From NCBI GenBank assembly GCA_029269845.2, contig CP149973.1, positions 690,001-722,000 on the forward strand: 32,000 nucleotides of DNA, read 5' to 3'. Positions 2,008-31,127 of this stretch are shown piece after piece. The notes beneath the pieces are model-generated. The model was not told the DNA's origin, did no database searches, and saw nothing but the letters and a program-made list of their open reading frames with translations. Source of the DNA: Opitutia bacterium KCR 482. Lineage in GTDB: Bacteria; Verrucomicrobiota; Verrucomicrobiia; Opitutales; Intestinicryptomonadaceae. The position numbers and the translations under genes were made by a program. The stretch's first letter is position 1; each line of letters starts with the position of its first letter.

Positions 2008-2976
2008 ATGAAAAACAGTTTCGAAATTCCTACTACGAAAGCCGCGGCCTCGCAAGAGGCGCGGCGTTTTATTGAATCGCTCCCGCCCGACTTCGCGCAG
2101 GCGCAGTCGGACGCGCTCGACGAAGCCGTCGCGGGAAATTCGGCAAAACTCGACGCCGTGCGCGAGGGCAGAAAAACGCCAACCGACGTGCGCGACGATT
2201 TGTATATGCTCGAAATCCGCAAAAAATTCGGCGGCACAGATTCGAAAATCCGCGTCTACCTGCCGAAAAATTCTGAGGGCGACATGCCGATAGTTGTCTA
2301 CTATCACGGCGGCGGCTGGTGCATAAACTCGGTCGAAAGCTGCGCGAGAATCTGCCAAGACATAGCGGAGAAAAACAACGCCATTGTGGTCTCGCCCGAC
2401 TATCGGCTCGCGCCCGAACACCCATTCCCCGCCGCGAACTCCGACGCGACGGAAACGCTAGACTGGACAATTGCAAACGCCGAAAAATTCGGCGGCAACC
2501 CGCGCAGAATCTTCACCGCGGGCGACAGCGCGGGCGGACACCTCGCGGCGGTAGCCGCCCTTGCGCGACCGAAAGCCGTGCGCGGCGCAATCCTGATTTA
2601 CCCCGCGCTCGACCTCACCGCAAAAAGGCGGCCGTCGCGCTCGCTCTTCGCAAAGGGCTTCTGCCTCAACGGCGACCTCATGGACAAATTCACCGCCGCG
2701 TACATACCCTCGGAGGAACAACGCGCAACGCCCGAAGCGTCGCCGATTTTAGCCGACAAATCGAACTTCCCCGACGCCCTGATAATTTCGTCGCAATGCG
2801 ATATTCTGCGCGACGAAGCCGAAGAATTCGCCCGCTCCCTCGACGCCGCAAAACGCAACGTGCGCTACGTCTGCGTGGAGGGCGCAACGCACCTGTTCAT
2901 CACCCAAAAGGGAATGGACAAAGCGTACGCGCGGGCGCTGGCGGAAATCTCGGAATTCGTGGAGTCGGCGCAATAA
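2008..2976 (+). CDS. alpha/beta hydrolase, hormone-sensitive-lipase (Aes-like) esterase family
   Basis: HGGGW oxyanion motif, GDSAGG nucleophile elbow, DYRLAPEHPFP block, C-terminal His (GATHLF). No signal peptide. Starts 4 nt after the upstream stop, so likely the same operon. Confidence 0.9.
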   Translation: MKNSFEIPTTKAAASQEARRFIESLPPDFAQAQSDALDEAVAGNSAKLDAVREGRKTPTDVRDDLYMLEIRKKFGGTDSKIRVYLPKNSEGDMPIVVYYHGGGWCINSVESCARICQDIAEKNNAIVVSPDYRLAPEHPFPAANSDATETLDWTIANAEKFGGNPRRIFTAGDSAGGHLAAVAALARPKAVRGAILIYPALDLTAKRRPSRSLFAKGFCLNGDLMDKFTAAYIPSEEQRATPEASPILADKSNFPDALIISSQCDILRDEAEEFARSLDAAKRNVRYVCVEGATHLFITQKGMDKAYARALAEISEFVESAQ

Positions 2977-3014
2977 AAACTTCTCGACAAACACTTCCGA
3001 TTCGATAGAGTATA

Positions 3015-3449
3015 ATGGCAATGAAAATTTCCACAAGAGGTAGATACGGACTGCGAATCATGCTCGACCTCGCCCAGCACGACGGCGACCAGCCGCGCAT
3101 GATTGGCGACATCTGCAAGGCGCAGGACCTGTCGAAAAAATACGTCGGCAGACTGATTCTCAAACTGCGCAACGCGGGCATGATTGCCTCGGTTCGCGGG
3201 GCGAAGGGCGGCTATAAAATCAAGCGAATGCCCAAACACATCACATTGCTTGAAATCATCGAAACAATGGAGGGCCCGATTTCGATTGTCGATTGTGTGC
3301 GCTGCCCGCGCAAATGCAAACGCTCCGAAAACTGCATAGCCCGCGACATCTGGGGAGAGCTGAACGAAAAAATCAGAAAGACACTCGAATCGCTCACGCT
3401 CCAAGACATAATCAACCGCCACGCGGACATCGAAGACTACTGCATTTAG
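3015..3449 (+). CDS. Rrf2-family transcriptional regulator with Cys cluster motif
   Basis: N-terminus M(AM)KISTRGRYGLRIMLDLA is the classic Rrf2 wHTH start. Also GYKIKR and the Cys-rich stretch DCVRCPRKCKRSENC (possible Fe-S ligands). The start could be 3015 or 3021. Confidence 0.9.
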   Translation: MAMKISTRGRYGLRIMLDLAQHDGDQPRMIGDICKAQDLSKKYVGRLILKLRNAGMIASVRGAKGGYKIKRMPKHITLLEIIETMEGPISIVDCVRCPRKCKRSENCIARDIWGELNEKIRKTLESLTLQDIINRHADIEDYCI

Positions 3450-3531
3450 CGCGTTTTTTCGCCCCCCGCCCGCGGCAAACGCAAGAATGCCGCCGCTTAA
3501 ATAGAAAACAACAATCCCATTAAAAACATCG

Positions 3532-3560
3532 AAGCCCCGAAAAATTCGGGGCTTTTTCTT
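3532..3560 (+). terminator. intrinsic terminator candidate
   Basis: AAGCCCCGAA / TTCGGGGCTT perfect 10-bp stem, AAA loop, then TTTTTCTT. Confidence 0.7.
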
Positions 3561-3725
3561 TGCGCGGATAGGCGGAAAAATTATAACGGCATCGGAAAAA
3601 TAAACACCGAATAAAAGCCGCGCACTTTAACAAAAAATCGCGCGCGCCAACAAGCAAAAAACCCCGCGCGGCGCACAATCCAGAATAGAGCGCGGAAACA
3701 ATCCAACTCCAACACTACACGGCAC

Positions 3726-3754
3726 AAAAAAAGACCGCGCGGAAAGCGCGGTCT
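3726..3754 (-). terminator. intrinsic terminator candidate for cysK
   Basis: On the minus strand: AGACCGCGC-TTTC-GCGCGGTCT followed by T7. Lies about 35 nt after the cysK stop. Confidence 0.75.
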
Positions 3755-3789
3755 CTTAGCGGGACGGGGAATTGCCCGCTTTCGGGAAA

Positions 3790-4710
3790 TTAGTCGCTAT
3801 ACAGCCAAGTAGATAGGTAGCGCGTGCCCGTGTCGGGAACGATTGCCACAATCTTCTTGCCCGCGTTTTCGGGAAGTTTTGCGAGTTCGAGCGCGGCAAA
3901 AATCGCAGCCCCCGCCGAAATGCCCGAATGTATGCCCTCCTCTTTCGCGAGCCTGCGGGCGGTGTCGCCAGCATCGGCGTCCTTGACGCGAATTACGCCG
4001 TCAATGACCTTAGAGTCGTAGATTTTCGGGACAAAGCCCGCGCCGATACCCTGAATCTTGTGGGGGCCGGATTTTCCGCCCGAAAGAACGGGGGAAGAGT
4101 CCGGCTCTACCGCATAGATTTTGACGGAGGGTTTGAGGGGTTTGAGCGCCTGACCGATGCCGCTGATTGTGCCGCCGGTGCCGACACCCGCAACAACGAT
4201 GTCAACCTGACCGTCGGTGTCCTCCCAAATTTCCTTGCCCGTGGTGAGGCGGTGGATTTCGGAGTTCGCAAAGTTTTCGAACTGTTGTGGAATGAACGCG
4301 TCCGCGTTCTGCTCTTTGAGTTCGAGAGCCTTTTCGATTGCGCCCTTCATGCCCTTCGCGCCGTCGGTGAGGACGAGCTGCGCGCCGAGACTGAGCAGGA
4401 ATTTTCTGCGCTCTACACTCATCGTTTCGGGCATGGTGAGAATGAGCTTGTAGCCCTTGACCGCCGCGACGAGCGCAAGACCGATACCCGTGTTGCCGCT
4501 GGTAGGCTCGATAATCAGACCGCCTTTTTTGAGCAGACCTTTTTTCTCGGCGTCCTCGACCATGGCGAGAGCCGCCCTATCCTTAACGGAGCCGGAGGGG
4601 TTGAAAAATTCGAGCTTGGCAAGAACCTCGGCTTTCGAATCGTTGAGTTTGTTGAGTCGGACAAGGGGAGTCCCGCCGACAAGTTCAAGAATGTTGTTTG
4701 CAATTTTCAT
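3790..4710 (-). CDS. cysK: cysteine synthase A (O-acetylserine sulfhydrylase)
   Basis: Full-length match to CysK hallmarks: [28 protein letters not shown] (PLP lysine), [22 protein letters not shown], length 306 aa. Confidence 0.95.
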
Positions 4711-4878
4711 GTTTCTACTTTCTTTGTGTTTTAAATTGAATGATATTGTTTGTTGGTATTTTGCACCATCGATTTTCTTTTAATCTTCCGCGCCGTGCGC
4801 TCACTTTTTAGGGGCGTCAAAGTACTTTCATAAGAGTGCCTTTCACGCGCTTGCGGGGTGCGTGGCGTACGCGGCTGG

Positions 4879-4902
4879 AAAAAATCCGCGGTAGCTCGCG
4901 AA
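4879..4902 (-). terminator. short hairpin plus U6, terminator/attenuator-like, inside repeat copy 1
   Basis: Minus strand: TTCGCG-AGCTAC-CGCGGA followed by TTTTTT. The 6-bp stem includes one G.U pair. An identical copy lies at 5190..5213. Confidence 0.35.
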
Positions 4903-5189
4903 ACACCCTACTCCACTTTTCCCAGAAAACAACCTAAAATCTTCGTGCGCAAGCACTCTAATTTTAGGGGCGTCAAAGTGCTTTCATAAGAGTGGCTTTC
5001 CTGTGCGCGGAGGGCGCGTGGCGTATTAAAATTTTTCAAAGAACAGGGCAGCTTCAAAACAGCCAACCTAACTTTTCCACGAAAACAACCTTAAATCTAC
5101 GCGCCGTGCGCTCACTTGTTAGGGGCGTCAAAGTACTTTCATAAGAGTGCCTTTCACGCGCTTGCGGGGTGCGTGGCGTACGCAGCTGG

Positions 5190-5213
5190 AAAAAATCCGC
5201 GGTAGCTCGCGAA
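5190..5213 (-). terminator. short hairpin plus U6, terminator/attenuator-like, inside repeat copy 2
   Basis: Same sequence as 4879..4902, offset by 311 bp. Confidence 0.35.
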
Positions 5214-5277
5214 ACACCCTACTCCACTTTTCCCAGAAAACAACCTAAAATCTTCGTGCGCAAGCACTCTAATTTTA

Positions 5278-5400
5278 GGGGCGTCAAAGTGCTTTCATAA
5301 GAGTGGCTTTCCTGTGCGCGGAGGGCGCGTGGCGTACTTATCGTACGCGAGCGGTCTGCGCGTACAGGGAAACGCTCTTAGGGAAGTACTTTGACGCCCC
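5278..5400. repeat. 123-nt imperfect palindrome (fourth repeat core paired with an inverted partial copy)
   Basis: Left arm 5278..5320 and right arm 5359..5400 are about 80% complementary by eye. The first 13 nt (GGGGCGTCAAAGT) pair perfectly. The central sub-hairpin is GCGTAC(5332-5337)-TTATC-GTACGC(5343-5348). The palindrome ends 1 nt before the metY stop codon (5402-5404). Confidence 0.8.
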
Positions 5401-5401
5401 G

Positions 5402-6685
5402 TCAAAGGACGGAGTCAAGCGCTTCAATGATATCGTCGGAGTTTTCGAGACCTATCGAGAGTCGGATTAAGTCTTTCGTCAGTCCGCCCGAAACCTGTTC
5501 TTCGTCCGAGAGCTGCGAGTGCGATGTGCTCGCGGGGTGGAGAATAAGGCTTTTTGCGTCGCCGACGTTTGCGAGGTTGCTGAAAAGCGGAATGTTGTCA
5601 ACAACCTTTACCGCCGCGTCGTAGCCGCCCTTCAAGCCGAACACGACCATTCCGCCGTAGATTCCGCGTTTGAGGTATTTTGCTGCAAGCTCGTGCGAGG
5701 GGTCGTCCTCCAAGCCCGGGTAGCGAACCCACGCAACGTTCTTGTGCGACTTCAAATACTTTGCGACTTTCAGCGCGTTCTCGCCATGGCGTTCGATTCG
5801 CAGCGGCAGACTTTCGAGACCTTGCAGGAAGAGCCATGCGGCGTCGGGCGCGAGGGTCGGTCCGAGGTTGCGGAGTCCGACAGTGCGGAGTCTCAAAATG
5901 AACGCGAGGGAGTTGAGGTCGCCGAGGTCGTGGGCGAAGCGGAGTCCGTGGTAGCCGCCGTCGGGCTTGTTGTAAAGCTCGAACTTTTCGTCGGACCAGT
6001 CGAAGTTGCCAGCGTCGATTACAGCTCCGCCGATTCCCGTGCCGTGCCCGCCAATCCACTTGGAGAGCGAGTGGATTACGATGTTCGCGCCGTAGTCGAT
6101 GGGGCGAAAGAGTCCGGGAGGCGTGAACGTGGAGTCCACAATCAGCGGCAGATGGTGCTTCTGCGCGATTTTCGCGTAGCCCTCGATGTCGGCGAAGTCG
6201 AGCTTCGGGTTGCCGATTGTCTCTATATAAATGGCGCGGGTTTTGGAGTTTATCGCCGCTTCAACCTCGTCGAATTTGTTGACGTGCGTGAAGCGCGTGG
6301 TGATTCCGAACGACGGCAGAATGGACGCAAACTGCGTGTACGTTCCGCCGTAGAGGTTGTTGGCGGAAACAAGCTCGTCGCCCTGTTTGAGAATGTTGGT
6401 GATTGCAAAGGCAATCGCCGCCGTTCCCGACGAAAGCGAAATCGCCGCCGCGCCGCCTTCGAGAGCCGCCAAACGCTTTTCGAGAACGTCGTTCGTGGGG
6501 TTCATGAGACGCGCGTAAATGTTGCCGGGCTCGCGGAGCGCGAAGAGGTCGGCGCCGTGCTTTGCGCTCTTGAAGTTGAAGGCGGTCGTCCTGTAAACGG
6601 GGACGGCGCGCGCGAGTGTCGCGGGGTCGGGCACTTGACCCGCGTGGATTGCCAATGTTTCGTATCTGTAATTTTTTTCGCTCAT
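5402..6685 (-). CDS. metY: O-acetylhomoserine sulfhydrylase (PLP-dependent, Cys/Met metabolism family)
   Basis: 427 aa. MSEKNYRYETLAIHAGQ N-terminus, NPTNDVLEKRLAALEGG, HSLSKWIGGHG (PLP lysine), LANVGDAKSLILHPASTSH. All are typical of MetY/OAH sulfhydrylases. Confidence 0.93.
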   Translation of the reverse strand: MSEKNYRYETLAIHAGQVPDPATLARAVPVYRTTAFNFKSAKHGADLFALREPGNIYARLMNPTNDVLEKRLAALEGGAAAISLSSGTAAIAFAITNILKQGDELVSANNLYGGTYTQFASILPSFGITTRFTHVNKFDEVEAAINSKTRAIYIETIGNPKLDFADIEGYAKIAQKHHLPLIVDSTFTPPGLFRPIDYGANIVIHSLSKWIGGHGTGIGGAVIDAGNFDWSDEKFELYNKPDGGYHGLRFAHDLGDLNSLAFILRLRTVGLRNLGPTLAPDAAWLFLQGLESLPLRIERHGENALKVAKYLKSHKNVAWVRYPGLEDDPSHELAAKYLKRGIYGGMVVFGLKGGYDAAVKVVDNIPLFSNLANVGDAKSLILHPASTSHSQLSDEEQVSGGLTKDLIRLSIGLENSDDIIEALDSVL

Positions 6686-12526: not shown

Positions 12527-13258
12527 ATGGCGAAAACTTCACCCAAACTTACGCGCTGCAAAATCAGACTCGGCAAAGACCTCAACTGGTGGGTTACCGA
12601 AACAAACGACAAAATCAACTGGGACATCGACGGACTCAGCGTCATCGACCCCCGACAGGCGGCGCATCTGCTCGACACCCTCGACGGACTCCGCGAATAC
12701 GGGCTTGACGACTCGCTCGTGGAAAAGGCGTTCATTCCCTTCGCAATCGAATCGAAAACCGCCGACAACGACGTGAAAATAGTCCGCACCGACGACTCCG
12801 TTTTCGACGCCGACGAACAGCAGCTCTTCCTCCTGCCCGACATCCTCGACGACGAACGCTCGGCATACGCGGAATTTCTCGACCACATCACAAAGTTGCA
12901 GGTCAAAATGCTCAACGACACATTCCATTTCGAAAAGGACGTGGCGATTGAAGACCTCGAAGAGGAAATCCGCGAAAACTATTCCAACGACTACATGGAA
13001 GGGCGGGCAATCCACGTCTTCCACGAAGTTATGGACATTCTCGAATATGTCCCCGAAGGCTATTCGCTCGACGATGACGACGAAGAGGAAGACAAGGACG
13101 AAGAGGACAACTACGACATCGACGACCTCCCCGAAGAAGAGGAAAATATCGAAGAGGACGACACCATGCACTGGGACGACGACGACAACGCCGACGACGA
13201 CTACATGAACAAGCCCTACGACGGCGACGATATCAATTTCCTCGACGACGACGAATAA
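12527..13258 (+). CDS. hypothetical, extremely acidic protein with poly-D/E C-terminal tail
   Basis: 243-aa ORF with its own flanking terminators. The C-terminal ~70 aa are almost entirely D/E with interspersed aromatics (…DDDDEEEDKDEEDNYDIDDLPEEEENIEEDD…DDINFLDDDE). No family recognised. Confidence 0.7.
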   Translation: MAKTSPKLTRCKIRLGKDLNWWVTETNDKINWDIDGLSVIDPRQAAHLLDTLDGLREYGLDDSLVEKAFIPFAIESKTADNDVKIVRTDDSVFDADEQQLFLLPDILDDERSAYAEFLDHITKLQVKMLNDTFHFEKDVAIEDLEEEIRENYSNDYMEGRAIHVFHEVMDILEYVPEGYSLDDDDEEEDKDEEDNYDIDDLPEEEENIEEDDTMHWDDDDNADDDYMNKPYDGDDINFLDDDE

Positions 13259-13289: not shown

Positions 13290-13317
13290 GGCGTCCCAAT
13301 TCGGGACGCTTTTTTTG
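13290..13317 (+). terminator. intrinsic terminator
   Basis: GCGTCCC-AATTC-GGGACGC stem followed by T7. Confidence 0.75.
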
Positions 13318-13515
13318 TGCCCGTGCATTCAAATTCAGCCGCAAAACGGCGCAAAGATGGGGCGCGAAAGCGTCGGCGGAGCGCAAAAATCGGTTGACAA
13401 TTCATGCGGCGGGGAAACAATATTGGAATCCTTGAACAAGAAAGCCGCGGCGACACGGCACAGCGCCCCACCCCGCGAACACAATCCTGGCGCGCAAAAC
13501 GCGAAAGGCGCGTTA

Positions 13516-14127
13516 ATGGACAAAATCAGAATCCTCTACACTTCAATGAACGTACTCGCAACAATTTCCGCCGCGTCGGCATTCGTCTTTTTTTTCGCAA
13601 TGGGAAAGCCCGAATGGGCGACGCCCGAAAGCGGCTGCCTTGAAATCACGCAGGCAGTCATTCTTACCGCAACGCTTGCGATTTTCATTGCCGCGCTCTG
13701 TCGAAAGGGAAGCAAAAACGAAAAATGGATTACCCTTTTCATGGCGGTGCTCTGCTACGCGTTCATTCTGCGCGAGGTCGATTTCGACAAAATGGGGCTG
13801 CCCGACGCCCTCGTTTTCATGCTCTACGGACACGGGAGAACGGCGGCGATAGTCGCGGGCTTCGCGGTCGCGCTGATAGGAGCGGCGCTCAGTTTCAAGA
13901 CATACGTCAGGTCGTCGCTGCGCCTGCTGTTTTCAAAACGCGGATTCCTGCTTGCGGCGTCCTGCGCCATGCTCTGGACGGGCTACTTTTTCGAACACCA
14001 TACAAAGCTCGAAACAAACGAACTTCTCGAAGAGTTTTTCGAACTGATAGGCTACATTCTGCTGCTAACGGAAGCCTACAAGACGGAGAGAATCGCCGAG
14101 GGCAAAGACACGCCGCAAAACGCATAG
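13516..14127 (+). CDS. hypothetical integral membrane protein (about 5-6 predicted TM segments)
   Basis: Preferred start is the internal Met at 13516 (MDKIRILYTSMNVLATISAASAFVFFFA…). The upstream 67 codons of the 13315 ORF are R/A/G-rich, non-protein-like, and overlap the previous terminator. Several hydrophobic segments. No family recognised. Confidence 0.65.
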   Translation: MDKIRILYTSMNVLATISAASAFVFFFAMGKPEWATPESGCLEITQAVILTATLAIFIAALCRKGSKNEKWITLFMAVLCYAFILREVDFDKMGLPDALVFMLYGHGRTAAIVAGFAVALIGAALSFKTYVRSSLRLLFSKRGFLLAASCAMLWTGYFFEHHTKLETNELLEEFFELIGYILLLTEAYKTERIAEGKDTPQNA

Positions 14128-14405: not shown

Positions 14406-15347
14406 TTAGTTTTTGCCGTCTATCTCGGTTTTTCCGAATTTGAGCCTGTCGTCGCCCATTTTGTTGCCGTCGGAATCGATAAACGAAATCATCTGCGACT
14501 TTGACGCATGGGTTATCGTGATTGTACCGTCGGCAAAACCGTCGGACGTTACTATATTTTCGAGAAAATACACCGTGCCGTCGATATTTCCGTTAACTAG
14601 CGTTATGAAGCCTTCCTTTACCGTGTCAGGCAAGTAGCCGGTTGCGCCGTTTACGAACAGGGACGCGCCGTCCGTGATGGATAGGTTGAAGACGCCCTTG
14701 ATATTGGAGCGGATGTCGAGGTCAATCGTCTGGTTGGCGGACATGTTCAGGTTGAATTGCCCGCGGGCGTCGTTGACAAAAAGGCGCACCAATTTTGTGT
14801 AGGAAGAGCTTGAAACGGAAATGGCGTTTGCCTTGTTCAAGTTTAAAGTCACAACTCCGAATTGCCCCGCAATTGCATCGGAAACAATTGTTCCGAGATA
14901 CCCGCTATCGACATTTACCGTAAGATTTCCGGTGAAATTTGCCGTTTCCCCATAACTCGCCGAAAAACCGTTTTTCAAAGTCATGCCCGCCGTTGCGCCG
15001 TTTTGGAAGTTTATTACGGAAGTCCCTTTTGTGCCGAGCGCGTAATCGCCGCTTGCCACCTGTCCCGCCCCGCTAATGACAAGATTCTTGCTGTCCGTCG
15101 GAGTAAAGTTGAGGGTGATGTTTTCGAGAACCAAAGGGCCGTCGCTCGGATTCGTGGTTATACTGTCCACCGAACCGGTGTTTACGCCGTCCGTGCCTGT
15201 AAGGTAATAGCCTGTTATATACTGTTTGGGATTGGTATTGTACTTCCCGAACTGGCCTGCGGTTTCGGTAAAACGAAAGTCGTCCGCAAAAAGCGAAGCG
15301 ACCGATAACGCCGAAAGCGTTGCGAATATTAGTTTTTTCGTATTCAT
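14406..15347 (-). CDS. secreted repeat-rich (beta-helix-like) protein, apparent PEP-CTERM protein truncated before its anchor
   Basis: Signal peptide MNTKKLIFATLSALSVASLFA. AAGGAG lies 6 nt upstream of the ATG at 15347; the ORF-track start at 15353 sits directly against the SD. G/N/T/S-rich degenerate repeats. Ends ...EIDGKN-TAA. Confidence 0.8.
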   Translation of the reverse strand: MNTKKLIFATLSALSVASLFADDFRFTETAGQFGKYNTNPKQYITGYYLTGTDGVNTGSVDSITTNPSDGPLVLENITLNFTPTDSKNLVISGAGQVASGDYALGTKGTSVINFQNGATAGMTLKNGFSASYGETANFTGNLTVNVDSGYLGTIVSDAIAGQFGVVTLNLNKANAISVSSSSYTKLVRLFVNDARGQFNLNMSANQTIDLDIRSNIKGVFNLSITDGASLFVNGATGYLPDTVKEGFITLVNGNIDGTVYFLENIVTSDGFADGTITITHASKSQMISFIDSDGNKMGDDRLKFGKTEIDGKN

Positions 15348-15540
15348 GTGCATCTCCTTTTTTCAGAATGATAAATTTATAACAAGCGACAGTATAGTTG
15401 TCAACGAAAATCGCCAACATTTTTTAACATTATACAAAAATTTAAAAAACGAAATAAATCGAAATCGAATCGGTGCGCCAATTTGCGGCTTGCCGTCCGC
15501 ATCGGGCGGGCGCGGCGGAAAATATTTGGATATTTCGAGC

Positions 15541-21617: not shown

Positions 21618-24600
21618 CTATCGCGGGCGTTCGACGATTTCGAAGAACAACCCGACGTGTTCGGACGTGTCCAGCTCAATCTTCATGACGCCGTTTTCGA
21701 TTTCGAAGGGGATTTTCTCCGCGCGCGCGCCGTTCATTTTCAGCCTGAAAAAGTCGAACTTTTTGGAGGCGTCGAGTTTCAGCTCGGCGGAAAGTTTCGC
21801 CGTCTGCACGAGAATCGGCGGCTTGCCCCACGCGTTGATTTTCCTGCGCGCGATCGACAAGCCCACCCCGCTCGTAACGGTGTCGGTCGCGAGCACAAGC
21901 ACCATGCGCGACGACCCGCGAATCGGTTTTCCGTCAATCGAGACCACCGCCACCGACGCGTCCGCCCCGCAGGACTTCACGTTGAAGTCGCCGAGGTTCG
22001 CGCCCTCGCCCGCGTTGAGCACCGCCGCCTGACTCTTCGGCGTGGAGACCGTAAGCCTGCGCTTTTTGACGTCCATGAGGATTTCGCCGGTGTCGCTCTG
22101 GTAGATTTCGTTGGCGGGGTCGGAGATGTTATCCGCGGGAAGGATTCCGCGCTTTTTGAAGTCGCCGACAATGTCGGCGGTTTTGAAGTCCGCGCCGATT
22201 GTCTTGCCGACCTCCGCAAAGTTCATGGCGACCTCGACCGCCGACGCCCCCACGGGCGACATCGCCATGTCGGGCGACTTTACCTCGACCGCCTTCGTCT
22301 CTTCGAGCTTGCGGCCGTCGGGGAAAGACAGCGCAAAGCCCGTCATCAGCGAAATCCTCGACTGCTGGTCGTTTACCGCGTACGCCACGTTCGGGCTTTT
22401 TTCGAAGAACTCCCTTCCGTAGACGACGTCTATTCTGTGCGGGGAACGCTTTACGTCGCCGCGCTTGAAGAGGAAGTTCGTGAGGAAGTCGTTGGCGCGG
22501 AACACGGGGTTTACGCCGATTCCGAAAAACGAGAGCCTTCGCGGGGCGAACGCTACGGGGCTGTCGAACGCAACGAGCGCGTTGTAGCCCTGCAAGGCGG
22601 AGTACGCGGGGAAGAGCACGCCCGCCTCGTGCGCGTATTTGTTGAAGTAGCAGTGCTGGTACTCCGTGACGGCGATGGGCATTCCAGAAACGCGCTTGAC
22701 GACCGTCCCGCGCCAGTATCCGCCCGCGTTGCCTATCGAGCTGTTCTGGTTCACGTCCGCGCCGAGCGAGTACGACGACGGGTGCGCGTGGTAGGTGTTT
22801 ACCGCCGTGTAGCTGCCGCCCTCGGAGCTAAGGTATGTCCAGAAGACGTTTTTTAGGCAGTTGTTCTGGTGCGTGGGAATTTTCATGCCGATTTCCCCGC
22901 GCACGACATTCTCGCAAAACGCCTGCATTTCCTCCATCGCGCCGATTAGGAACTGCGTGAAAACCGGATTCCCCGACCTGTTCGGATACGGCGAGACATC
23001 GACCTGTTCGAACTTGTCGAACGCGCCGTTGTATGTCCACGGCTTGCCGATTCCGTCGCAATATGCGAGAAATTCGGAAACGCTCTTGAAGCGTTTTGAG
23101 AGGTATTCCGCGAATTTCGCGTTGACGAGCTTTCTGCCTTCTTCGGTAATCGCGTTGTAGACTGCGATTCCGAGCTCAAACTCGTTCCAGTACTCGATTG
23201 CCGCAATCGACGGGTCGTCCTTCCACGCCTTGCCCGTGTAGGGGTTGACGTGTTCGAGCTGCATTTTGGCGAGCTTGCGCCACGCCTCGCGCACGGCGGG
23301 GTCGCCCAGCATCATCTTGACCTTCACGGTAAAGCGGTCGTTCCATGTGAACGACGGGTCGCCGGTGTCGTGGCTGCAAATGTAGAAGAACGAGTAAATG
23401 CCCTCGCGGCCGAGCGCGTGGAGGAAGTAGTCGTACAAATCGCGGTTGAGGGGCTTGAGCTTGTAGGGGGCTTCGAACTCGCCCTTGCCCTTCATCGCAA
23501 AACGCCAGCGGATTGCGTTGTAGCCCTGCTTTTTCAGCTCCGCAACGTACTTGTCGATTTCCTCGTGCGTATTGATGTTCCAGCCGAAGCCGCAAATCAG
23601 CTCGAAGAAGTTCGCGCTCTTGAAGCGGATTTCCTCGTCGGGTCTGTCCTCGAAAACGAAGCCGCCGTTTTTGCCGATTTTCACCCTGCCGTACTTCCCC
23701 GCGGGCGCGCCCCGCGCGACGGATTCCGACATGTCGAGAGCCGAGCCTTTCTCGATTGCAAAGGTGTCGATGTCGAGCGGCTTCCAAACGGCGGGGTCGA
23801 ATTTCAGGTTTTCGGTCGTGTTGACCTCGCGCGACGACACCGTCGCCGCGACGATTTCCCAGTGCGCGCTCCGCAGAAGCTCGAAGTTCACCGACGCGAT
23901 GTCGGCAAGTCCGTCGCCGCCGACGAGGTCGAAGCGGCTCATGTATAGCACGCCGGTTTTCGATTTTTTGTCGTTGACGAAAACGGGGAGCGCGTTGTCG
24001 AACACAGCGGGGTTTTCGGTAGCCCGCCAGATGTCGGTCTTGCAGGCGACGAGCAGCTTTTTGTCGCGCCCGTCGGCGAATTTTACGGTAATTCTGCCGA
24101 GGTTTCCGTTGGCGTCGCCGCCCGCCGTGTGCAGAACGTAGAGGTATTTTCCGCGCGGAAGCGCGCCCGAAAAGTCCACTTTCGCCGAATCGCCCTTGCG
24201 GGTGATGACAACCGCCGACGCCCCCTCGTTGCGGTCGGCGTTCAGAATTTTGAATTTCATGCCGCCGTAGACGCGCCCGAGTTTGGGGGCTTTAAGTTTT
24301 GAGAACGCGGGCAGAACACCGTCGCCCGCGCCCTCCTTGAAGTCGGAGTTCGCCGCTTTCGACAAATCGACGCAGAATGAGTCTTCCCAGCCGTCGCCGC
24401 AAGACACCCGCGCGGAAAATTCCGTGCGCACGCCCTTGACGAGCCTTATTTTGTGCGAAATGCGCTTCGAGCGCGTAGTCTCCGCGCACATTCCGCCACC
24501 GCTTTCGACGGGGTTCGGCACTATCGCCACCCTGCCCGTCGGCTTCCAGCCGCCAAGACCGTCCTTGAAGTCGAAGCCCGCCGCGCCTTTGATGTCTGTA

Positions 24601-24908
24601 AAATAGACCGCCAGCGGCTTTTTGCCCTCGCCCGCGCGGAGTTCCAGCACGGCGTCGCCGTCGGCTTCGGGCACAAGCGCGAATTTCATTTCGCGGAACT
24701 TGTTTGAGGACGCCTCGCGAGCGAAGACTTTTACGCCCGCTCCGCCCGACACTTTGCAGTTCGTGCCCTCTGCGTCGATTTTAACGGGGACTGCCGTGCG
24801 CAGCACGGCCTCCGCAGGAATTTTTTTCGCGGGGATTTTCGTCTGCGAAAAAAGCGCGGATACCGTTGCCAGTATCCACGCCGTTGAAATTGCAGCATAT
24901 CTTAACAT
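21618..24908 (-). CDS. secreted multidomain protein, putative clan GH-A (GH42/GH5-like) TIM-barrel glycoside hydrolase, paralog 3
   Basis: Signal peptide. Central region carries a GH-A-like strand motif series: GYNAIRWR, FFYICSHD, IEYWNEFE (Glu codon 23181-23183), NTYHAH, IAVTEYQ (Glu codon 22662-22664). The two Glu lie 173 aa apart. Flanked by beta-sandwich-like N- and C-terminal modules. Family not assigned. Confidence 0.6.
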   Translation of the reverse strand: MLRYAAISTAWILATVSALFSQTKIPAKKIPAEAVLRTAVPVKIDAEGTNCKVSGGAGVKVFAREASSNKFREMKFALVPEADGDAVLELRAGEGKKPLAVYFTDIKGAAGFDFKDGLGGWKPTGRVAIVPNPVESGGGMCAETTRSKRISHKIRLVKGVRTEFSARVSCGDGWEDSFCVDLSKAANSDFKEGAGDGVLPAFSKLKAPKLGRVYGGMKFKILNADRNEGASAVVITRKGDSAKVDFSGALPRGKYLYVLHTAGGDANGNLGRITVKFADGRDKKLLVACKTDIWRATENPAVFDNALPVFVNDKKSKTGVLYMSRFDLVGGDGLADIASVNFELLRSAHWEIVAATVSSREVNTTENLKFDPAVWKPLDIDTFAIEKGSALDMSESVARGAPAGKYGRVKIGKNGGFVFEDRPDEEIRFKSANFFELICGFGWNINTHEEIDKYVAELKKQGYNAIRWRFAMKGKGEFEAPYKLKPLNRDLYDYFLHALGREGIYSFFYICSHDTGDPSFTWNDRFTVKVKMMLGDPAVREAWRKLAKMQLEHVNPYTGKAWKDDPSIAAIEYWNEFELGIAVYNAITEEGRKLVNAKFAEYLSKRFKSVSEFLAYCDGIGKPWTYNGAFDKFEQVDVSPYPNRSGNPVFTQFLIGAMEEMQAFCENVVRGEIGMKIPTHQNNCLKNVFWTYLSSEGGSYTAVNTYHAHPSSYSLGADVNQNSSIGNAGGYWRGTVVKRVSGMPIAVTEYQHCYFNKYAHEAGVLFPAYSALQGYNALVAFDSPVAFAPRRLSFFGIGVNPVFRANDFLTNFLFKRGDVKRSPHRIDVVYGREFFEKSPNVAYAVNDQQSRISLMTGFALSFPDGRKLEETKAVEVKSPDMAMSPVGASAVEVAMNFAEVGKTIGADFKTADIVGDFKKRGILPADNISDPANEIYQSDTGEILMDVKKRRLTVSTPKSQAAVLNAGEGANLGDFNVKSCGADASVAVVSIDGKPIRGSSRMVLVLATDTVTSGVGLSIARRKINAWGKPPILVQTAKLSAELKLDASKKFDFFRLKMNGARAEKIPFEIENGVMKIELDTSEHVGLFFEIVERPR

Positions 24909-24911
24909 AAA

Positions 24912-27704
24912 CTATTCCGAAACGATTTCGAAGAACACCGCCGTGTGCTTTGCCGTGTCGAGTTCCAACTTCATCACGCCGTCGGCGGAGACTTCGCAGG
25001 GGATTTTTTCGACGCGTTCGCCGTTCATTTTCAGCGAATACACCGCGTACTTTTTGTTCGGCGCAAGCTTCAATTCGGCGGAAAGTTTGCCGGTTTCGAT
25101 AAGCACGGGCATGCCGCCCCAAGCCGTTACGAACAGCCTGTTTTTCGACACGCCGAAGCCCTTCATGACGGCGTCGGTGTTGTATGTGAGAACGAGCCTG
25201 CCCGATTCGGCAATCGGCTTGTCGTCAACCGCCGAGACCGCGATTGCCGCGTTCGCCGTGGACGATTTCACCGTGAGCCTGCCTAACTTTTCGTTTTTGA
25301 GCGTCGAGCGCATTACGATAGCCTCCGACTTCGGGCTTACGACTTTCATCATGTTCTCCTTCGAGCGCATTGTGATTTCGCCCGTGTCGCTCTGGTAGAC
25401 GCCGTTTGCGGGGTCGGAGATGTTGTCGGCGGGGAGTATTCCCTTTGCCTTCAATTCCTTTGCGAATTCGGCGATGTTGAATTTGCCGTCGGGCGAAATC
25501 GACATCGTGGCGGGCTTTACCGACACTTTTTTAAGCTCGTCGATTTTCCTCGCCGTCGGGAAGTTGAGGGCAAAGCCCGTCATGAGCGCGATTTTCGTGC
25601 GGTCGGCGGCGGCTGGCATTCCGATTGCCTGACTCTTTTCCATCGCCTCCTTGTCGAAGAGAATGTCTACGCGGTTCGGCGAAGTTTTGACGTCGCCGCG
25701 GTAGAAGAGGAAGAAGTTGATGAAGTCGTTTGCGCGGAATACTGGGTTTTCGGCGACGTTGAAGTAGCCCAGCTCTCCGCCGCGCGGGGCTACCGCCGCG
25801 TCGAATACCACGAGCCCGTCGTAGTCGTTTAGAGCCGAGTACGCGGGGAATGTCAGCGCCGCCTCGTGCTTGAAGCGGTTGAAGTGGCAGTGCTGGTATT
25901 CGGTGATTGTCATGGGCATTCCCGCAACTTTTCGGTTGATTGTGGAACGCCAGAAGTTGGTTTCGTCGGCGAATTCGCTGGTGTCGTTGACTATGCCGCC
26001 GATGAGGTAGGACGACGGGTGAACGAAGTATGTGTTGCACGCAATGTAGCTGCCTCCCTCCGCGCCGATGAACGACCAGTACAGACGCTTGTTGCAGTTG
26101 TTCTGGTGGGTGGGAACTTTCATGCCGATTTCCTTGCGGACGAAGTTTTCCCAAAACGCCTGCGTTTCCTCCATCGCCTTGATTACGAAGTGCGCGTACG
26201 CCTTTGAGCCGCGGTTGCCCCAGACGGAGAGGTCGGCGTCGGCGAAGGTTTTAAGAGGCTTTTTCTGTTTCCACGCGGGGTTGTCGGCGAGGAACTTTTC
26301 GACCGTTCCGTATTTTCCCTTCAAAAACTCCGCGAACTTCGAGGCTATCAACGCCTTGCCCTCGGCCGTGAGGTTGGGGTAGTTTTCCGCGCCGATTTCA
26401 AACTCGTTCCAGTATTCGAGCGTCGCCACTACGGGGTCGTCTTTGAGAGCCATGCCCGTGTAGGGGTTGACGTGTTCGAGCTGCATGCGGGCAAGCTTCT
26501 TCCAGTTGTCGCGCACTTTTTCGTCGCCGAGCATCATTTTGACTTTCAGCGTTCCGCGTTCGTCCCAGCGGAATTCGGGACTGCCGTCGTCGTTGCTGCA
26601 AAGGTAGTAGAAAATATAGACGCCCTCGCGTTTGAGCGCGTAGATATAGTAGTCGTACATATCCTGAATTTCGGGCTTGAGCCGGTAGGGGGCGTCGTAT
26701 TCCGCCGCTCCGCGCATTGCGGGACGCCAGCGCACGGCGTTGTAGCCCTGCTTTTTGAGGATTTTCACGTATTCGTCGATGTCCTCGTGCGTGCGCACAA
26801 GCTCGCCCGTCACGCGCGGAGCCGACGGGTCTACAACCTCGTTTTTCACGGGGAAGCGGTTTGCAAGGCGCAGGTTTGTGCCCTTGAATTTAATCGGCAC
26901 TCCCGGCTTCTTTTCGAACTCGAACTTGCCGCTCTTGCCGATTACCACCCTGCCGTCTATTCCGCACGGCGCGCCGAACATCATTTTGGAGACATCGAGA
27001 GCCGAGCCCTCCTTGATTGCGAGGTCGGCGGTGTCGAGGGGCTTCCAGACTTCGGGGTCGAAAACGTAGTTTTGGGTTGTCTGCACTTCCTCCGAGGAAA
27101 CCGCCACGCCCGCGATTTTCCAATCGCCCTTGCCAAAGCTTTTGAATCCGATTTTCGAAATCGGGGCGGGGTCTTTGCCGGGAACCGCCCCATAGTTTAC
27201 GATGAAGCGCGACAGGTACAAAACGCCCGTCTTGCTCTTTTCGTTTTCCACATAGACGGGAAGCGCGTTGTCGAGCACGTCGGCGGATTCGTCCGCGCCG
27301 CCGATGTCGCGGCCGCCCTTAACCCAAACGGTGCGCTTGCGGCCGTCGGCAAAAACAATCTCCATTTCGCCGCCGAAAACCTTGCCCTTGGGCTGGTTTT
27401 CGAACGCGTGGAGAAGGAAGACGTAGTTCGCGTTTCGGTTGACGTATTTGGAAACGTCCACTTCGGGCACGTTCTTTTCGTTGCTTGCCGAAATTACCCA
27501 GTTGCCGCCGTGCTTCGACGGATCGGCGACGATGAACCCCATTCCGCCAAGCTCCATGCCTCCCGACTTGAAGTTTTTGACCGACGCCATCTTTCCGTTG
27601 ACCGCCTCCGAGATGTCGGCAACCTGCGTATTTTCCCCGTCGCAACCCGCCGCAAAAAGCGCGAGAATCGACGCCGATAGTAGTAGTAGTTTTTTCATTC
27701 CCAT
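24912..27704 (-). CDS. secreted (possibly lipoprotein) putative clan GH-A glycoside hydrolase, paralog 2 (lacks first N-terminal module)
   Basis: MGMKKLLLLSASILALFAAGC leader. Motifs LEYWNEFE (Glu codon 26403-26405) and MTITEYQ (Glu codon 25899-25901), 168 aa apart. Collinear with paralogs 1 and 3, including the shared GILPADNISDPA…YQSDTGEI block. Confidence 0.6.
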   Translation of the reverse strand: MGMKKLLLLSASILALFAAGCDGENTQVADISEAVNGKMASVKNFKSGGMELGGMGFIVADPSKHGGNWVISASNEKNVPEVDVSKYVNRNANYVFLLHAFENQPKGKVFGGEMEIVFADGRKRTVWVKGGRDIGGADESADVLDNALPVYVENEKSKTGVLYLSRFIVNYGAVPGKDPAPISKIGFKSFGKGDWKIAGVAVSSEEVQTTQNYVFDPEVWKPLDTADLAIKEGSALDVSKMMFGAPCGIDGRVVIGKSGKFEFEKKPGVPIKFKGTNLRLANRFPVKNEVVDPSAPRVTGELVRTHEDIDEYVKILKKQGYNAVRWRPAMRGAAEYDAPYRLKPEIQDMYDYYIYALKREGVYIFYYLCSNDDGSPEFRWDERGTLKVKMMLGDEKVRDNWKKLARMQLEHVNPYTGMALKDDPVVATLEYWNEFEIGAENYPNLTAEGKALIASKFAEFLKGKYGTVEKFLADNPAWKQKKPLKTFADADLSVWGNRGSKAYAHFVIKAMEETQAFWENFVRKEIGMKVPTHQNNCNKRLYWSFIGAEGGSYIACNTYFVHPSSYLIGGIVNDTSEFADETNFWRSTINRKVAGMPMTITEYQHCHFNRFKHEAALTFPAYSALNDYDGLVVFDAAVAPRGGELGYFNVAENPVFRANDFINFFLFYRGDVKTSPNRVDILFDKEAMEKSQAIGMPAAADRTKIALMTGFALNFPTARKIDELKKVSVKPATMSISPDGKFNIAEFAKELKAKGILPADNISDPANGVYQSDTGEITMRSKENMMKVVSPKSEAIVMRSTLKNEKLGRLTVKSSTANAAIAVSAVDDKPIAESGRLVLTYNTDAVMKGFGVSKNRLFVTAWGGMPVLIETGKLSAELKLAPNKKYAVYSLKMNGERVEKIPCEVSADGVMKLELDTAKHTAVFFEIVSE

Positions 27705-27735
27705 ATATATTGTGGTTATTGTGTGTTGTTGAATA

Positions 27736-30700
27736 TTATTCGGCGACGATTTCGAAGAAGGGCGAGAACTCCTTGAGCTTCGACGTGTCGATTTCTATTT
27801 TCAGCATGCCGTCCGACTCTTCGAGCGGGATTTTTTCGAGGCGTTCGCCCGTGATTTTAAGCGCGTAAAGCGAGAATTTTTTGCCCGCGCCGAAAAGCGA
27901 AGCCACGTCGTCGAAGAATCCCAAGCTCGGCTTTTCGAGCGTAGCCGACACTTTGCCGACCTGCATGAGAATAGGCGTCGTGCCTTTCGAGATGAACGTC
28001 GTTTCGTCGCGCGAAACTTTGAAGTTCGTAGAGATGTTGTTGGTGTTGAAAATGAACACAATTCTCCCCGACTCCGCAAGCGGGTTGCCGTCAACCGACG
28101 ACGCCGCAACCGCCGCGGGAACCGAAACCGACTTCACCGTAAGCTCGCCCACCTTCTCGTTTTTCGTGGCGGGCTTGAGCGCGACAGCCTCGGTATTTGC
28201 GGTCGCAACTTTCACAAGCTCCTCTTTCACGCGCATCGTGATTTCGCCGGTGTCGCTCTGGAAGACGCCCTTTGCGGGGTCTGTCGCGTTGTCGGCGGGA
28301 AGTATGCCTGCCTCGCGCAGGCGTTTTGCGGCTTGGGAAATGTCGAACTTTTTGTCGCCCGCGCCAGTTCCCGCGACGTTCGACGCAGCCCACGACGCCG
28401 AAGAGCCAATCGGCTCGAACTGCAAGTCGGCGGGCTTCGTTTTGATTTTCGCGGCGGCGGGCGATTTGCGGGCGGTCGGGAACTCGATTCCGAAGCCCGT
28501 AAGCAGCGCGAGTTTCGACTGCTCCGTGTTCATGGCGTTGCCGACTTCGCGCGAGTTTTCAAGGTATTTGTCGTCGTAGACAATGTCCACGCGGCGGTCG
28601 GAAGTTTTGACGTCGCCCCTGAAAAACAGCACGGAGGTCAAAAATTCGTTTGCGCGGAACACGGGGCTGCCCGCCACTTCGAAAGGTCCGAGCGCGCCGC
28701 GCGATTTAAGAACCGCAACATCGTGGACTGTGAGGTTGTCGAAGCCCTGCAACGCCGAGTACGACGGGAACAGCACGCCGCCCTCGTGTTTGTAGGGATT
28801 CCAGTGGCAGTGCTGCCATTCCGAAAGCATCATGGGCCTTCCCGCCACGCGCTTCGCGGCGGCGGCTCTGAAATATTCGCCGAAGTCGGACACAGACGAC
28901 TCCGAGCCCACTACCGAGCCCTCCGACATGAACGCGCTGGGGTGTTTGTGGTAGACGTTGAGCGCGGTGTAATCGCCCGCCTCCGCGCTTAGCAGCGCAA
29001 ACGATGTTGCCCTCACGCAGTTGTGCTGGTGGAGCGGAACGTTGAAGCCCTCCTCGCCGCGCACGACGCCCTCGCAGAAGCGTTGGAGGTCGCGCCCGTT
29101 TTCGATTATGAACAGGGCGATGTCGCGCTGTGAAATGCCTTCGTCGGATATTTTCACGTCGTCGAAGCTTTTGAGGTTGCGGCGGGCTTTCCATTCGGGC
29201 TCGTTCCAGTTTTCGAAAGTCTTGTACTTGTTTTTGAGGAACTCCACGAACTTTGCGTTTACAAACTTCTTCACGCGCGGCGACGCGTTGCGAAGCCCGA
29301 CGGGGCCAAGCTCGATTTCGTTGAAATACTCGGTGGAGACAATGGAGGGGTCGTCCTTCCACTTTTTGCCTGTGTATTTGTTGACGAGGTTAAGCTCCCA
29401 CTTGACGAACTTGCGCCAGTCGGCGCGGGTTTTTTCGTCGCCGAAGAACATGAGAATTTTCACGTCGAACCTGTCGGCCCAATTGAAGTCGGGGTTGCCG
29501 AGGTCGTGGCTCGAAAGGTTGAAGTGCGAGTACACGCCCTCGCGCGCCATGGCGTAGAAGAAGTAGTCGTACATGTCCTTGTTGTACTCCCTGAGAGTGT
29601 ACGGCGCGGAGAATTCCTTGTTGCCGCGCATGGAAATGCGCCAGCGAACGAGGTTGTAGCCCTGCCTGCGCATCATTTTTGCAAGCTCGTCGATGTCGGC
29701 GTGCGTCTTGATTGTCGTGCCGAAGCCGTCGCCGGGACGCCAGTTCGTGCCCTGAAACTTCACGGGAACTCCCGCGCGGTTTTCAAATTCGAAACGCCCG
29801 TTTTCGGAGACTCTCATTTTGCCGAAGCTGCCCGCGGGCGCGCTTTCAACCTGCTTGGAGAGGTCGAGAGCCGTGCCCTCTTTCACCGCCAAGTCGGAGA
29901 TGTCCACGGGCTTCCACTGGCTCAAATCGTACTGTTTGGGAACGATTGTATCGAGGCTTTCGCTCGAAACCGTAATCGCGAAAACGTTGAGCTTTTCGCC
30001 GTCGATTCTTATGCTTTTGATTGCTCCGGCGTTTTCCTTAAACACGAATTTTGTGAAGTAAAGCACTCCGCCGTTCTTGCCCCCCCCGAAAACGGGAATG
30101 CACTTGGAGTTAAATTTTGTAGTGCCGGCGGAGTCGCCGAAATCCCTGTCTTTGCGAATCCAGAAATGCTCCGACCCGCCGTTTTCGAAAGAAACGAGCA
30201 TGCTTGCGCAGGCGTGGTCGGTATACTTCAAGTCGTTCGAGACCGCGCCCAAAACGTAGACGTATTTGCCGCGAATACCTTTGCCCGACAAATCGGCTTT
30301 CAGCGGCGTCGATACAGAAACAGCCGCCGCGCGGTTGACGCCCGACTTCGGGAAATCGTACTTCATTCCGCCAAGCTCTACAACTCCCTCGGGGAGGTTT
30401 TTATACGCCGAAATGCCGCCCTTCGAGCCGTCGGCCGGAATGTTTGCGCATTCGGAAATGTCGACCGTGTACGTGCCGTCCCACTTGGCGGGGACTTTCG
30501 CCTCTACCGACACCGACACCGGCACGCCTTTTTTCACACTGATTTTGGCGGGTATGCCGCGCGCGTATGTAGCCTCATGCCCGCTTTGCCCCGCAAGCTC
30601 GGCTTCGGGCTTGCCGTCGAATGCGAGGTTTCTGAACAGAGTGCGGTTTGAGAGCACCGCGCCGTTTTTGTCGCGCGCAAAATTGCTGCGCAGAAGAATG

Positions 30701-30969: not shown

Positions 30970-31127
30970 AGTAATCCGTGTGTGTGTTAAAGGGTTTGAC
31001 GTTAACCGATTTCCGCCGCGCATGCAAACATTTTTTCCCGCGCTCCCCGCCGATTCTTTCTTTCCGTGAAAATTGTGTTGCGCGAAGCGATTTTGATGTT
31101 TTCATTGTCTTCCGATTTTTAAAATTT

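Follow-up and report, generated by a model that had tools for sequence, protein, structure and literature searches.

The mycobacterial interspersed repetitive units (MIRUs) of Mycobacterium tuberculosis, known as variable-number tandem repeats (VNTRs), are tandem intergenic units of 40-100 bp that lie inside operons, differ in number between strains and can be used for typing. Small open reading frames (ORFs) that overlap the stop and start codons on either side are reported in them, and a long palindrome is absent. In enterobacteria, repetitive extragenic palindromes (REPs) occur in mosaics with other motifs, the bacterial interspersed mosaic elements (BIMEs), at 3' untranslated or intercistronic positions, and their hairpins are kept by compensatory change. 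Pairs of inverted REPs (REPINs) are mobilised by RAYT transposases, and the copy number of BIME-2 varies through tandem amplification. Many REPs are found no more than 15 nt from a stop codon, where they are reported to stall ribosomes (PMC12306157, citing its ref. 17). In the BOX elements of pneumococci the number of boxB modules varies between strains, and BOX supplies the stop codon of 36 genes in Streptococcus pneumoniae ATCC 700669 (PMC3049150). In this paper we analyse a repeated non-coding block between a metY-like and a cysK-like gene of Opitutia bacterium KCR 482. It lies in a window of 32,000 nucleotides, the whole stretch of DNA that was analysed (contig CP149973.1, positions 690,001 to 722,000). 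Very probably this block is the product of local amplification of an interspersed repeat of the REP/BIME/BOX kind that is modular, non-coding and specific to the lineage.

The spacer between the two genes measures 691 bp in the window. A 19-nt core, GGGGCGTCAAAGTRCTTTC, is found on the + strand at 4811, 4967, 5122 and 5278, with 0.02 matches expected by chance, and Tandem Repeats Finder gives a period of 156 with 3.4 copies over 4806-5336. A pattern search adds a fifth, inverted core copy at 5382-5400 on the minus strand with 1 mismatch, which nhmmer stretches to an inverted arm at 5338-5400. This arm, the leader, starts 1 nt past the metY stop codon (TGA, 5402-5404). In the orientation of the genes, which is the minus strand, the order after the metY TGA is 1 nt, the leader (~63 nt), units A-B-A-B, 46 nt and the cysK ATG. 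Each unit is made up of a ~60-nt core, a ~50-nt trailer conserved in sequence, and a ~45-nt variable tail, which by eye resembles at other loci a degenerate copy of a terminator hairpin. The features of the locus are as follows.

5402..6685, minus strand: upstream gene, metY-like O-acetylhomoserine sulfhydrylase family enzyme (Pfam Cys_Met_Meta_PP, E=6.5e-126).
5338..5400, minus strand: leader, a single inverted ~60-nt core and 5' arm of the long hairpin (inverted repeats I1-I4; pattern match; nhmmer leader hidden Markov model (HMM), 5400 to 5338, E=5e-18).
5278..5400, minus strand: imperfect hairpin of ~123 nt, in which the leader pairs with the core of unit 1 (folding; covariation over 15 loci).
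5180..5335, minus strand: unit 1, A type, 156 bp, with core, trailer and a weak terminator-like hairpin plus T6 (nhmmer unit HMM, 5335 to 5215; terminator-like site 5213 to 5196).
5025..5179, minus strand: unit 2, B type, 155 bp (nhmmer, 5179 to 5060).
4869..5024, minus strand: unit 3, A type, 156 bp, near-identical to unit 1, with the second hairpin plus T6 (nhmmer, 5024 to 4904; terminator-like site 4902 to 4885).
4757..4868, minus strand: unit 4, B type, the last unit; family homology stops near 4757 (nhmmer, 4868 to 4757, model positions 1-110).
4711..4756, minus strand: locus-specific stretch preceding the cysK start codon (final ~35-45 nt common to alleles).
4789..5025, no strand assigned: copy 1 of the latest duplication, an A-B dimer at 311-bp offset (two mismatches in 237 bp; repeat family D1).
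5100..5336, no strand assigned: copy 2 of the latest duplication (repeat search and base comparison).
3790..4710, minus strand: downstream gene, cysK-like pyridoxal phosphate (PLP) enzyme (Pfam PALP, E=2.7e-73).
3015-3449, strand not given: gene of an Rrf2-family regulator (Pfam scan).

Much of this anatomy had been described in a sequence-only reading of the window. The four direct units of 155/156 bp that fill the spacer are as described there, as is the lack of any ORF of 60 aa or more (the longest has 43-55 aa), and the hairpin plus T6 of the A-type units is found on the minus strand where it had been placed. The 237-bp direct repeat at an offset of 311 bp also withstands a base-by-base comparison: 4789-5025 and 5100-5336 differ at 4807/5118 and 4873/5184 only. 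Our repeat search of the window extends the pair to 246 nt (4780-5025 and 5091-5336, 98% identity), with four further mismatches between the two dimer copies at 4784-4788. The reading was right on the four direct cores and overlooked the inverted fifth copy. It had also proposed that A and B units keep hairpin potential at the same place with different sequences, which is better explained by each unit carrying one arm of the long hairpin whose other arm is that overlooked copy.

Copies of the element lie at scattered loci. When 185,579 species, with one genome each, were scanned for the exact pattern, Opitutia bacterium UBA4654 (Verrucomicrobiota) was the only one with matches. They lie on three contigs: an array of two units between metY and cysK, another of two units directly after hisB, and a third array at a contig start. 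The same kind of scan in metagenomes gave 30 loci, 16 of which were upheld by the nhmmer unit HMM, the rest being chance matches. Thirteen of these 16 are located on 12 contigs that all belong to the OGFM01 assembly. The metY locus of OGFM01 matches the window at 98% identity; the arrays of this assembly have 1-3 units each, and in some the leader is repeated as well. The 32-kb window contains one array of the element only, by pattern and by nhmmer, and no match was found in the plasmid and phage collections.

The position of the element relative to genes is precise. An intact leader is present in 15 arrays, and its start lies between -1 and +7 nt from a TAA, TAG or TGA, at +1 or +2 in ten of them. 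When the start of the element is taken as ACGG, the stop codon either ends on its first A (TA/A, TG/A, with the slash at the boundary) or abuts it (TAG/AC). The orientation relative to the upstream gene is identical in every case examined. Ten of the stop codons end unrelated genes confirmed with Pfam, namely metY, IGPD/hisB, DHO_dh, Gly3P_dh, H_PPase, Zn_peptidase_2, a GFO/IDH/MocA oxidoreductase, an Asp-Al_Ex transporter, a periplasmic binding protein and a LysM/TPR protein. Since the same element stands behind many unrelated genes, a role specific to cysteine or methionine metabolism fails, and the element is not a regulator of that kind.

At most other loci the arrays are followed by a second module of ~210 nt, which also occurs alone, is sometimes in tandem, and has no copy in the window. 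Module 2 contains a canonical terminator hairpin, AAGCGGAGATTCC..GGGATTTCCGCTTTTT, followed by CGCGCAAAGCGCG, and three more hairpins that seem by eye to covary (ATTGGCGAAGCCAAT/ATTGCCAACGGCAAT, GGCGCGGGTATACCCGCGCC/GCGGCAAGTATACTTGCCGC and GGAACGAAGTTCC/GGAGCGAAGCTCC). It has no Rfam match and could be another repeat family or a structured RNA. A 13-nt stretch in the window, TATCCGCGCAAAG (reverse complement of ~3559-3571), resembles part of it. The sites of module 2 are the following.

L013: 482-692 and 721-875.
L016: 6666-6880.
L023: 3316-3525.
L024: 4204-4414.
L025: 683-898.
L034: 1862-2060.
L040: 263-475.
L041: 169-524.
L042: 9434-9604.

The part of the family whose structure is conserved is the long hairpin formed by the leader and the first core. 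Over 15 loci, RNAalifold gives 42 pairs, half of which (21) have changes on both sides. Of all cells 95.7% are paired, against at most 52% in slid controls, and no shuffle out of 500 attains the covariation of the real alignment. A compensatory series is for example GGGGCGT/ACGCCCC, GGCGCGT/ACGCGCC and GGCATGT/ACATGCC. Of the two strands, the one antisense to the genes gives by far the more stable fold. As RNA, the hairpin of the window has a minimum free energy (MFE) of -93.0 kcal/mol on the antisense side (+ strand; z=-12.6) against -66.6 kcal/mol on the sense side (z=-9.3), and as single-stranded DNA (ssDNA) the values are -50.6 and -35.7 kcal/mol. The mean RNA MFE over the 15 loci is -81.6 kcal/mol antisense and -63.1 kcal/mol sense, with the antisense fold more stable at all 15. 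With the arms aligned as an inverted repeat, A.C on the sense strand, equivalent to G.U on the antisense strand, accounts for 97 mismatched cells, and sense-strand G.U for only 6; about seven A.C positions are common to most copies, so the independent events are far fewer than 97, and the evidence that the bias is real is suggestive. The motif GAAAGCAC is retained on the same strand in both arms. This asymmetry may point to recognition specific to one strand, in which an HUH-type enzyme acts on ssDNA or an antisense RNA is recognised.

A test for covariation had been proposed with the sequence-only reading, and its outcome depends on the part of the array considered. The hairpin of leader and first core covaries as described, whereas for 29 units without their leader RNAalifold finds no consensus structure (-1.4 kcal/mol) and no covarying pair. 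With no conserved structure over these 29 units, the unit is ruled out as a riboregulator. The hairpin plus U6 of the A units is not more stable than shuffled sequence (z=+0.8). The whole 691-nt spacer folds better than shuffled sequence (z=-4.3).

Relative to its sister lineages, the metY-cysK locus of the window carries an insertion. In the lineage whose metY is 95% identical (P0052, five contigs) the spacer has 87 bp of unrelated sequence, and where metY is 88% identical (P0080) it has 21 bp; in more distant relatives the gene order is different. In none of these loci does nhmmer find the leader, the unit or core, or module 2. The spacers of filled sites (the window and L007) and empty sites (L044-L049) are unalignable, and no target-site duplication or exact 3' end can be defined from them.

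Within the lineage itself, the number of units varies. The metY protein of the window has an exact match on at least 20 contigs, with near-identical variants on dozens more, and strains with identical or nearly identical metY protein have 1, 2, 3 or 4 units. One unit is found in spacers of 206, 215, 223, 223, 232, 250, 264 and 265 bp (8 contigs), two units in spacers of 369-387 bp (5 contigs) and three in spacers of 487-535 bp (6 contigs). The 691-bp spacer with four units occurs in the window and on 3 independently assembled contigs (L001, L003 and L008). Unit orders include A-B, B-A-B and A-B-A-B, and the cores differ among alleles between two states, type 1 (CACTCTTATGAAAGYACTTTGACGCCCC) and type 2 (CACCGCCTGAACGGCACTCTAACGCCCC). 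Most alleles of the lineage have the 4711..4756 stretch in common, while L056 and L064 share just the last ~35 nt of it. In L058, L059, L061-L064 and L071 the leader begins with a 9-nt duplication, CGGGGCTTACGGGGCGTCATAG, right at the stop-codon junction. The one-unit allele of L066 (2785-3007) combines a type-2 leader with a type-1 core into a hairpin with many mismatches, and looks like the product of a deletion between units.

Many short contigs terminate inside the element. In L060 (2785-3250) and L069 the metY hairpin is followed by the canonical trailer, terminator and module 2 of the family instead of by cysK, and in L060 a P-II gene and the genes of ribosomal proteins L36 and L31 come next. 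These joins reflect either recombination between copies of the element or chimeric assembly through the repeat. The array is thus a variable-number tandem repeat at which recombination or breaks of the assembly are concentrated.

We suggest the following course of events for the locally amplified repeat. The basic element has two parts, the first a ~123-nt imperfect palindrome of two inverted ~60-nt arms at, or 1-2 nt away from, the stop codon lying upstream, and the second a ~95-nt trailer that at most other loci ends in a canonical intrinsic terminator. This element probably entered, or replaced, a short ancestral spacer at the metY-cysK junction, and the module of core and trailer (155/156 bp) would then have multiplied head-to-tail, most likely via unequal homologous recombination or replication slippage between units. 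Duplication of the 311-bp A-B dimer would be the latest step, and the array is unstable in copy number, with 1 to 4 units among strains. We infer that the family is or was mobile. The strand asymmetry and the precise position at the stop codon suggest a strand-specific, site-preferring mechanism of spread. The hairpin, or the weak terminators of the A units, may also affect the expression of metY and cysK. A very stable hairpin abutting the stop codon could protect or process the mRNA 3' end, or disturb terminating ribosomes, as an effect of the generic REP/BIME/BOX kind, and the weak hairpin plus U6 of the A units could attenuate read-through from metY to cysK in proportion to their number.

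Among the explanations offered by the sequence-only reading was a REP/MITE-like element expanding by tandem duplication, and dispersal and copy-number polymorphism support it. The element also has the properties of a small interspersed repeat: many copies at unrelated extragenic sites (at least 17 loci, behind at least 10 unrelated genes), a non-coding sequence shorter than ~500 bp with a stable stem-loop, and polymorphism in presence or size (empty sites in the sister lineages, 1 to 4 units among strains). Several points weigh against this explanation or limit it. The element occurs at 17 or more other loci of the lineage, a minimum count obtained with exact-pattern seeds, and that the OGFM01 contigs belong to the same organism as the window is our inference. 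Short-read assemblies may miscount the units of 311-bp near-identical repeats, although the 691-bp form agrees in four assemblies. No transposase or other mobilising gene was found among the window ORFs scanned, nor a target-site duplication or a defined 3' end, so that the term mobile element rests on dispersal. The strong covariation of the hairpin and the tight abutment to stop codons would also fit a function selected in the host, and a simple model of a sense-strand 3'-UTR hairpin does not predict an asymmetry that favours the antisense strand. Moreover, in at least one allele, that of L066, leader and core are of different types. The hairpin is therefore not preserved everywhere, a sign of weak selection at the metY-cysK locus that weakens any functional claim too.

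The two regulatory explanations of the array are not supported. Tandem cis-regulatory RNA modules sensing sulfur status, such as riboswitches, attenuators or small RNA genes, had been proposed on the grounds that the block lies between two sulfur-assimilation genes and that its A units carry a hairpin plus U6, and the favourable fold of the whole spacer could be added to these. The search against Rfam suggested with that proposal gave no match to the block in the whole window at gathering thresholds. At E<=10, positions 4600-5500 hit only sub-threshold plant and animal miRNA-precursor models, which merely detect the long hairpin, and the sixteen related loci gave tRNAs only. A sigma-70 promoter scan of 4400-5700 on both strands found 0 sites, and a terminator scan found the two A-unit sites only, no more than shuffles give. 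The same units follow hisB and the DHO_dh (pyrD-like), Gly3P_dh (gpsA-like), H_PPase and other genes, so that the core does occur at many unrelated intergenic sites, which the reading itself had set against its regulatory explanations. With the fold of the A-unit hairpin no better than shuffled sequence, no fold of the single unit, one to four units among strains and spacers of 21-87 bp of unrelated sequence in the sister lineages, the block does not qualify as a riboswitch or attenuator. We regard this explanation as largely refuted and its probability as minimal. Just as improbable is an array of operators for a transcription factor, for instance the Rrf2-family regulator encoded at 3015-3449. 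The Rrf2 gene is a conserved neighbour of cysK, and the type-1 core contains the palindrome AAAGTACTTT. However, this palindrome is not kept in the type-2 cores of the same locus (CGCCTGAACGGCACTCTAAC), the sister lineages have the Rrf2 gene but no repeats, and the repeats are found at many loci unconnected with sulfur metabolism, behind at least ten functionally unrelated genes.

The array, or its copy number, could also be an artefact of a mis-resolved repeat in short-read assemblies. The two A-B dimers share 99% identity over 237 bp, a length exceeding typical k-mers, numerous contigs end within the element, and L060 and L069 join metY to other genes through it. On the other hand, the 691-bp form is present in four independent assemblies with small private differences, the forms with one, two and three units differ in unit order and SNPs in ways that would not result from collapse or expansion alone, and an identical metY lies on a contig of 2.30 Mb; an artefact is thus very unlikely. 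More weight, within the range of the unlikely, should be given to a structured element used by the host, in which the hairpin abutting the stop codon is selected for translation termination, mRNA decay or operon polarity, or as an antisense structured RNA, and the array tunes cysK. Compensatory changes in 21 of the 42 pairs across paralogous copies, the precise position and fixed orientation at the stop codons of at least 10 unrelated genes, the mismatch asymmetry (97 against 6 cells) with the more stable antisense fold at every one of the 15 loci, and the ribosome stalling reported for REPs close to stop codons (PMC12306157) would all agree with it. But the sister lineages live without the element at the metY-cysK locus, so it is dispensable, copy number and the matching of leader and core vary freely among strains, and the block has no promoter-like sites on either strand. 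Compensatory change may equally arise from recognition by a transposase or of ssDNA, or from conversion between the arms. A bolder hypothesis, which we also hold to be improbable to about the same degree, is that of a new kind of element, specific to one strand, whose insertion or retention would occur precisely at stop codons. It would be active as an antisense-strand hairpin (as ssDNA for an HUH-type enzyme, or as antisense RNA) and coupled to translation termination or to the fate of mRNA 3' ends at dozens of housekeeping genes, and the number of tandem units would be a fast-evolving dial of operon polarity from metY to cysK.

Returning to the amplified interspersed repeat, its closest analogue in architecture is pneumococcal BOX. 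Both are non-coding, dispersed and modular, with a tandem internal module of strain-variable copy number; in both the terminal modules pair into a stem, and BOX often overlaps the 3' end of a gene, supplying or abutting its stop codon. No sequence relationship is apparent (BOX sequences were not compared), the host phylum differs, and the likeness is architectural only. The module here has 155/156 bp and consists of a palindrome arm plus trailer, whereas boxB is an independent module of 45 nt. Furthermore, neither evidence for terminal inverted repeats or target-site duplication nor a candidate insertion-sequence partner was found for the element here, and its orientation to the upstream gene is fixed. 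The family appears to be a new one of a known kind, outside the named families. With REPs and BIMEs it shares the extragenic palindrome in a mosaic with other motifs, the position close to stop codons (for REPs, PMC12306157) and the compensatory changes. Its arms, however, have ~60 nt (hairpin ~123 nt) against 20-40 nt, the GTAG-type 5' tetranucleotide is absent from the arm ends, which excludes a REP or REPIN, and so far it is known at tens of loci in one species-level lineage. The tandem intergenic units of polymorphic number inside an operon recall MIRU-VNTRs, from which the long palindrome distinguishes it.

Other classes fit less well. A miniature inverted-repeat transposable element (MITE) in the strict sense, with terminal inverted repeats and a target-site duplication, is not what we find, as the inverted arms account for no more than the ~125 nt at the 5' end, beyond which comes the trailer. 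Direct repeats are absent from the flanks, which have TGA, TAA or TAG on the left and TAAAA or locus-specific sequence on the right. No transposase was detected among the 19 window ORFs scanned with Pfam. A CRISPR array is excluded, the segments between the cores being homologous between units and between loci. Integron attC sites are similar in being an imperfect palindrome directly after a stop codon in fixed orientation, with one (the bottom) strand folding better. The 5' end of the element is often ..AAC or ..GAC, and the R'' box of attC is RYYYAAC, but its 3' end reads ACGCCCC-TAA without GTT. After ACGCCCC comes TAAAA or TAACA and not the R' box, GTTRRRY; the element follows scattered housekeeping genes and not cassettes, the window has no integrase, and the element is not an attC site.

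The observation holds, yet what it reveals is of an ordinary kind, an interspersed repeat that has been amplified. It removes a false lead, as the spacer hides no cysteine or O-acetylserine riboswitch, and it describes an uncatalogued repeat family from an uncultured gut lineage of Opitutia that turns up in assemblies of many separate samples. Short-read assemblies break at the repeats, which may also produce chimeric joins in metagenome-assembled genomes, as possibly in L060 and L069. The metY-cysK array is a ready VNTR marker for tracking strains. Abutment to the stop codon and a strand-asymmetric hairpin also make the family a compact system in which the site choice of REP- and BOX-like elements, and their effects on termination and operon polarity, could be studied.

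A protein identical to the metY product is named O-acetylhomoserine aminocarboxypropyltransferase/cysteine synthase family protein (Opitutia) at NCBI. An exact-sequence look-up of the cysK protein gave no match, and a literature search for UBA4654 found no paper. Elsewhere in the window, the ORFs at 12527-13258, 13315-14127 and 14406-15353 have no Pfam match, and three consecutive large ORFs of 1096, 930 and 1095 aa are found on the minus strand at 21618-31023. The intergenic region between the convergent Rrf2 and cysK genes (3450-3789) is strongly A-rich on the + strand, with an AT skew of up to 0.49. It holds two sites of a hairpin with a T/A run (~3530-3556 and ~3727-3760), by eye canonical terminators, so the organism appears to use ordinary hairpin-plus-U terminators. 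The metY, cysK, Rrf2 regulator and DUF3034 genes are kept together in the window (2008-6685) and in the 95% sister lineage (L044-L048). In relatives at 83% (L050-L051) metY, Rrf2 and DUF3034 are retained, no cysK is called, and ThiS and ThiF genes come after metY; in L050 a ThiG gene lies upstream in the metY neighbourhood.

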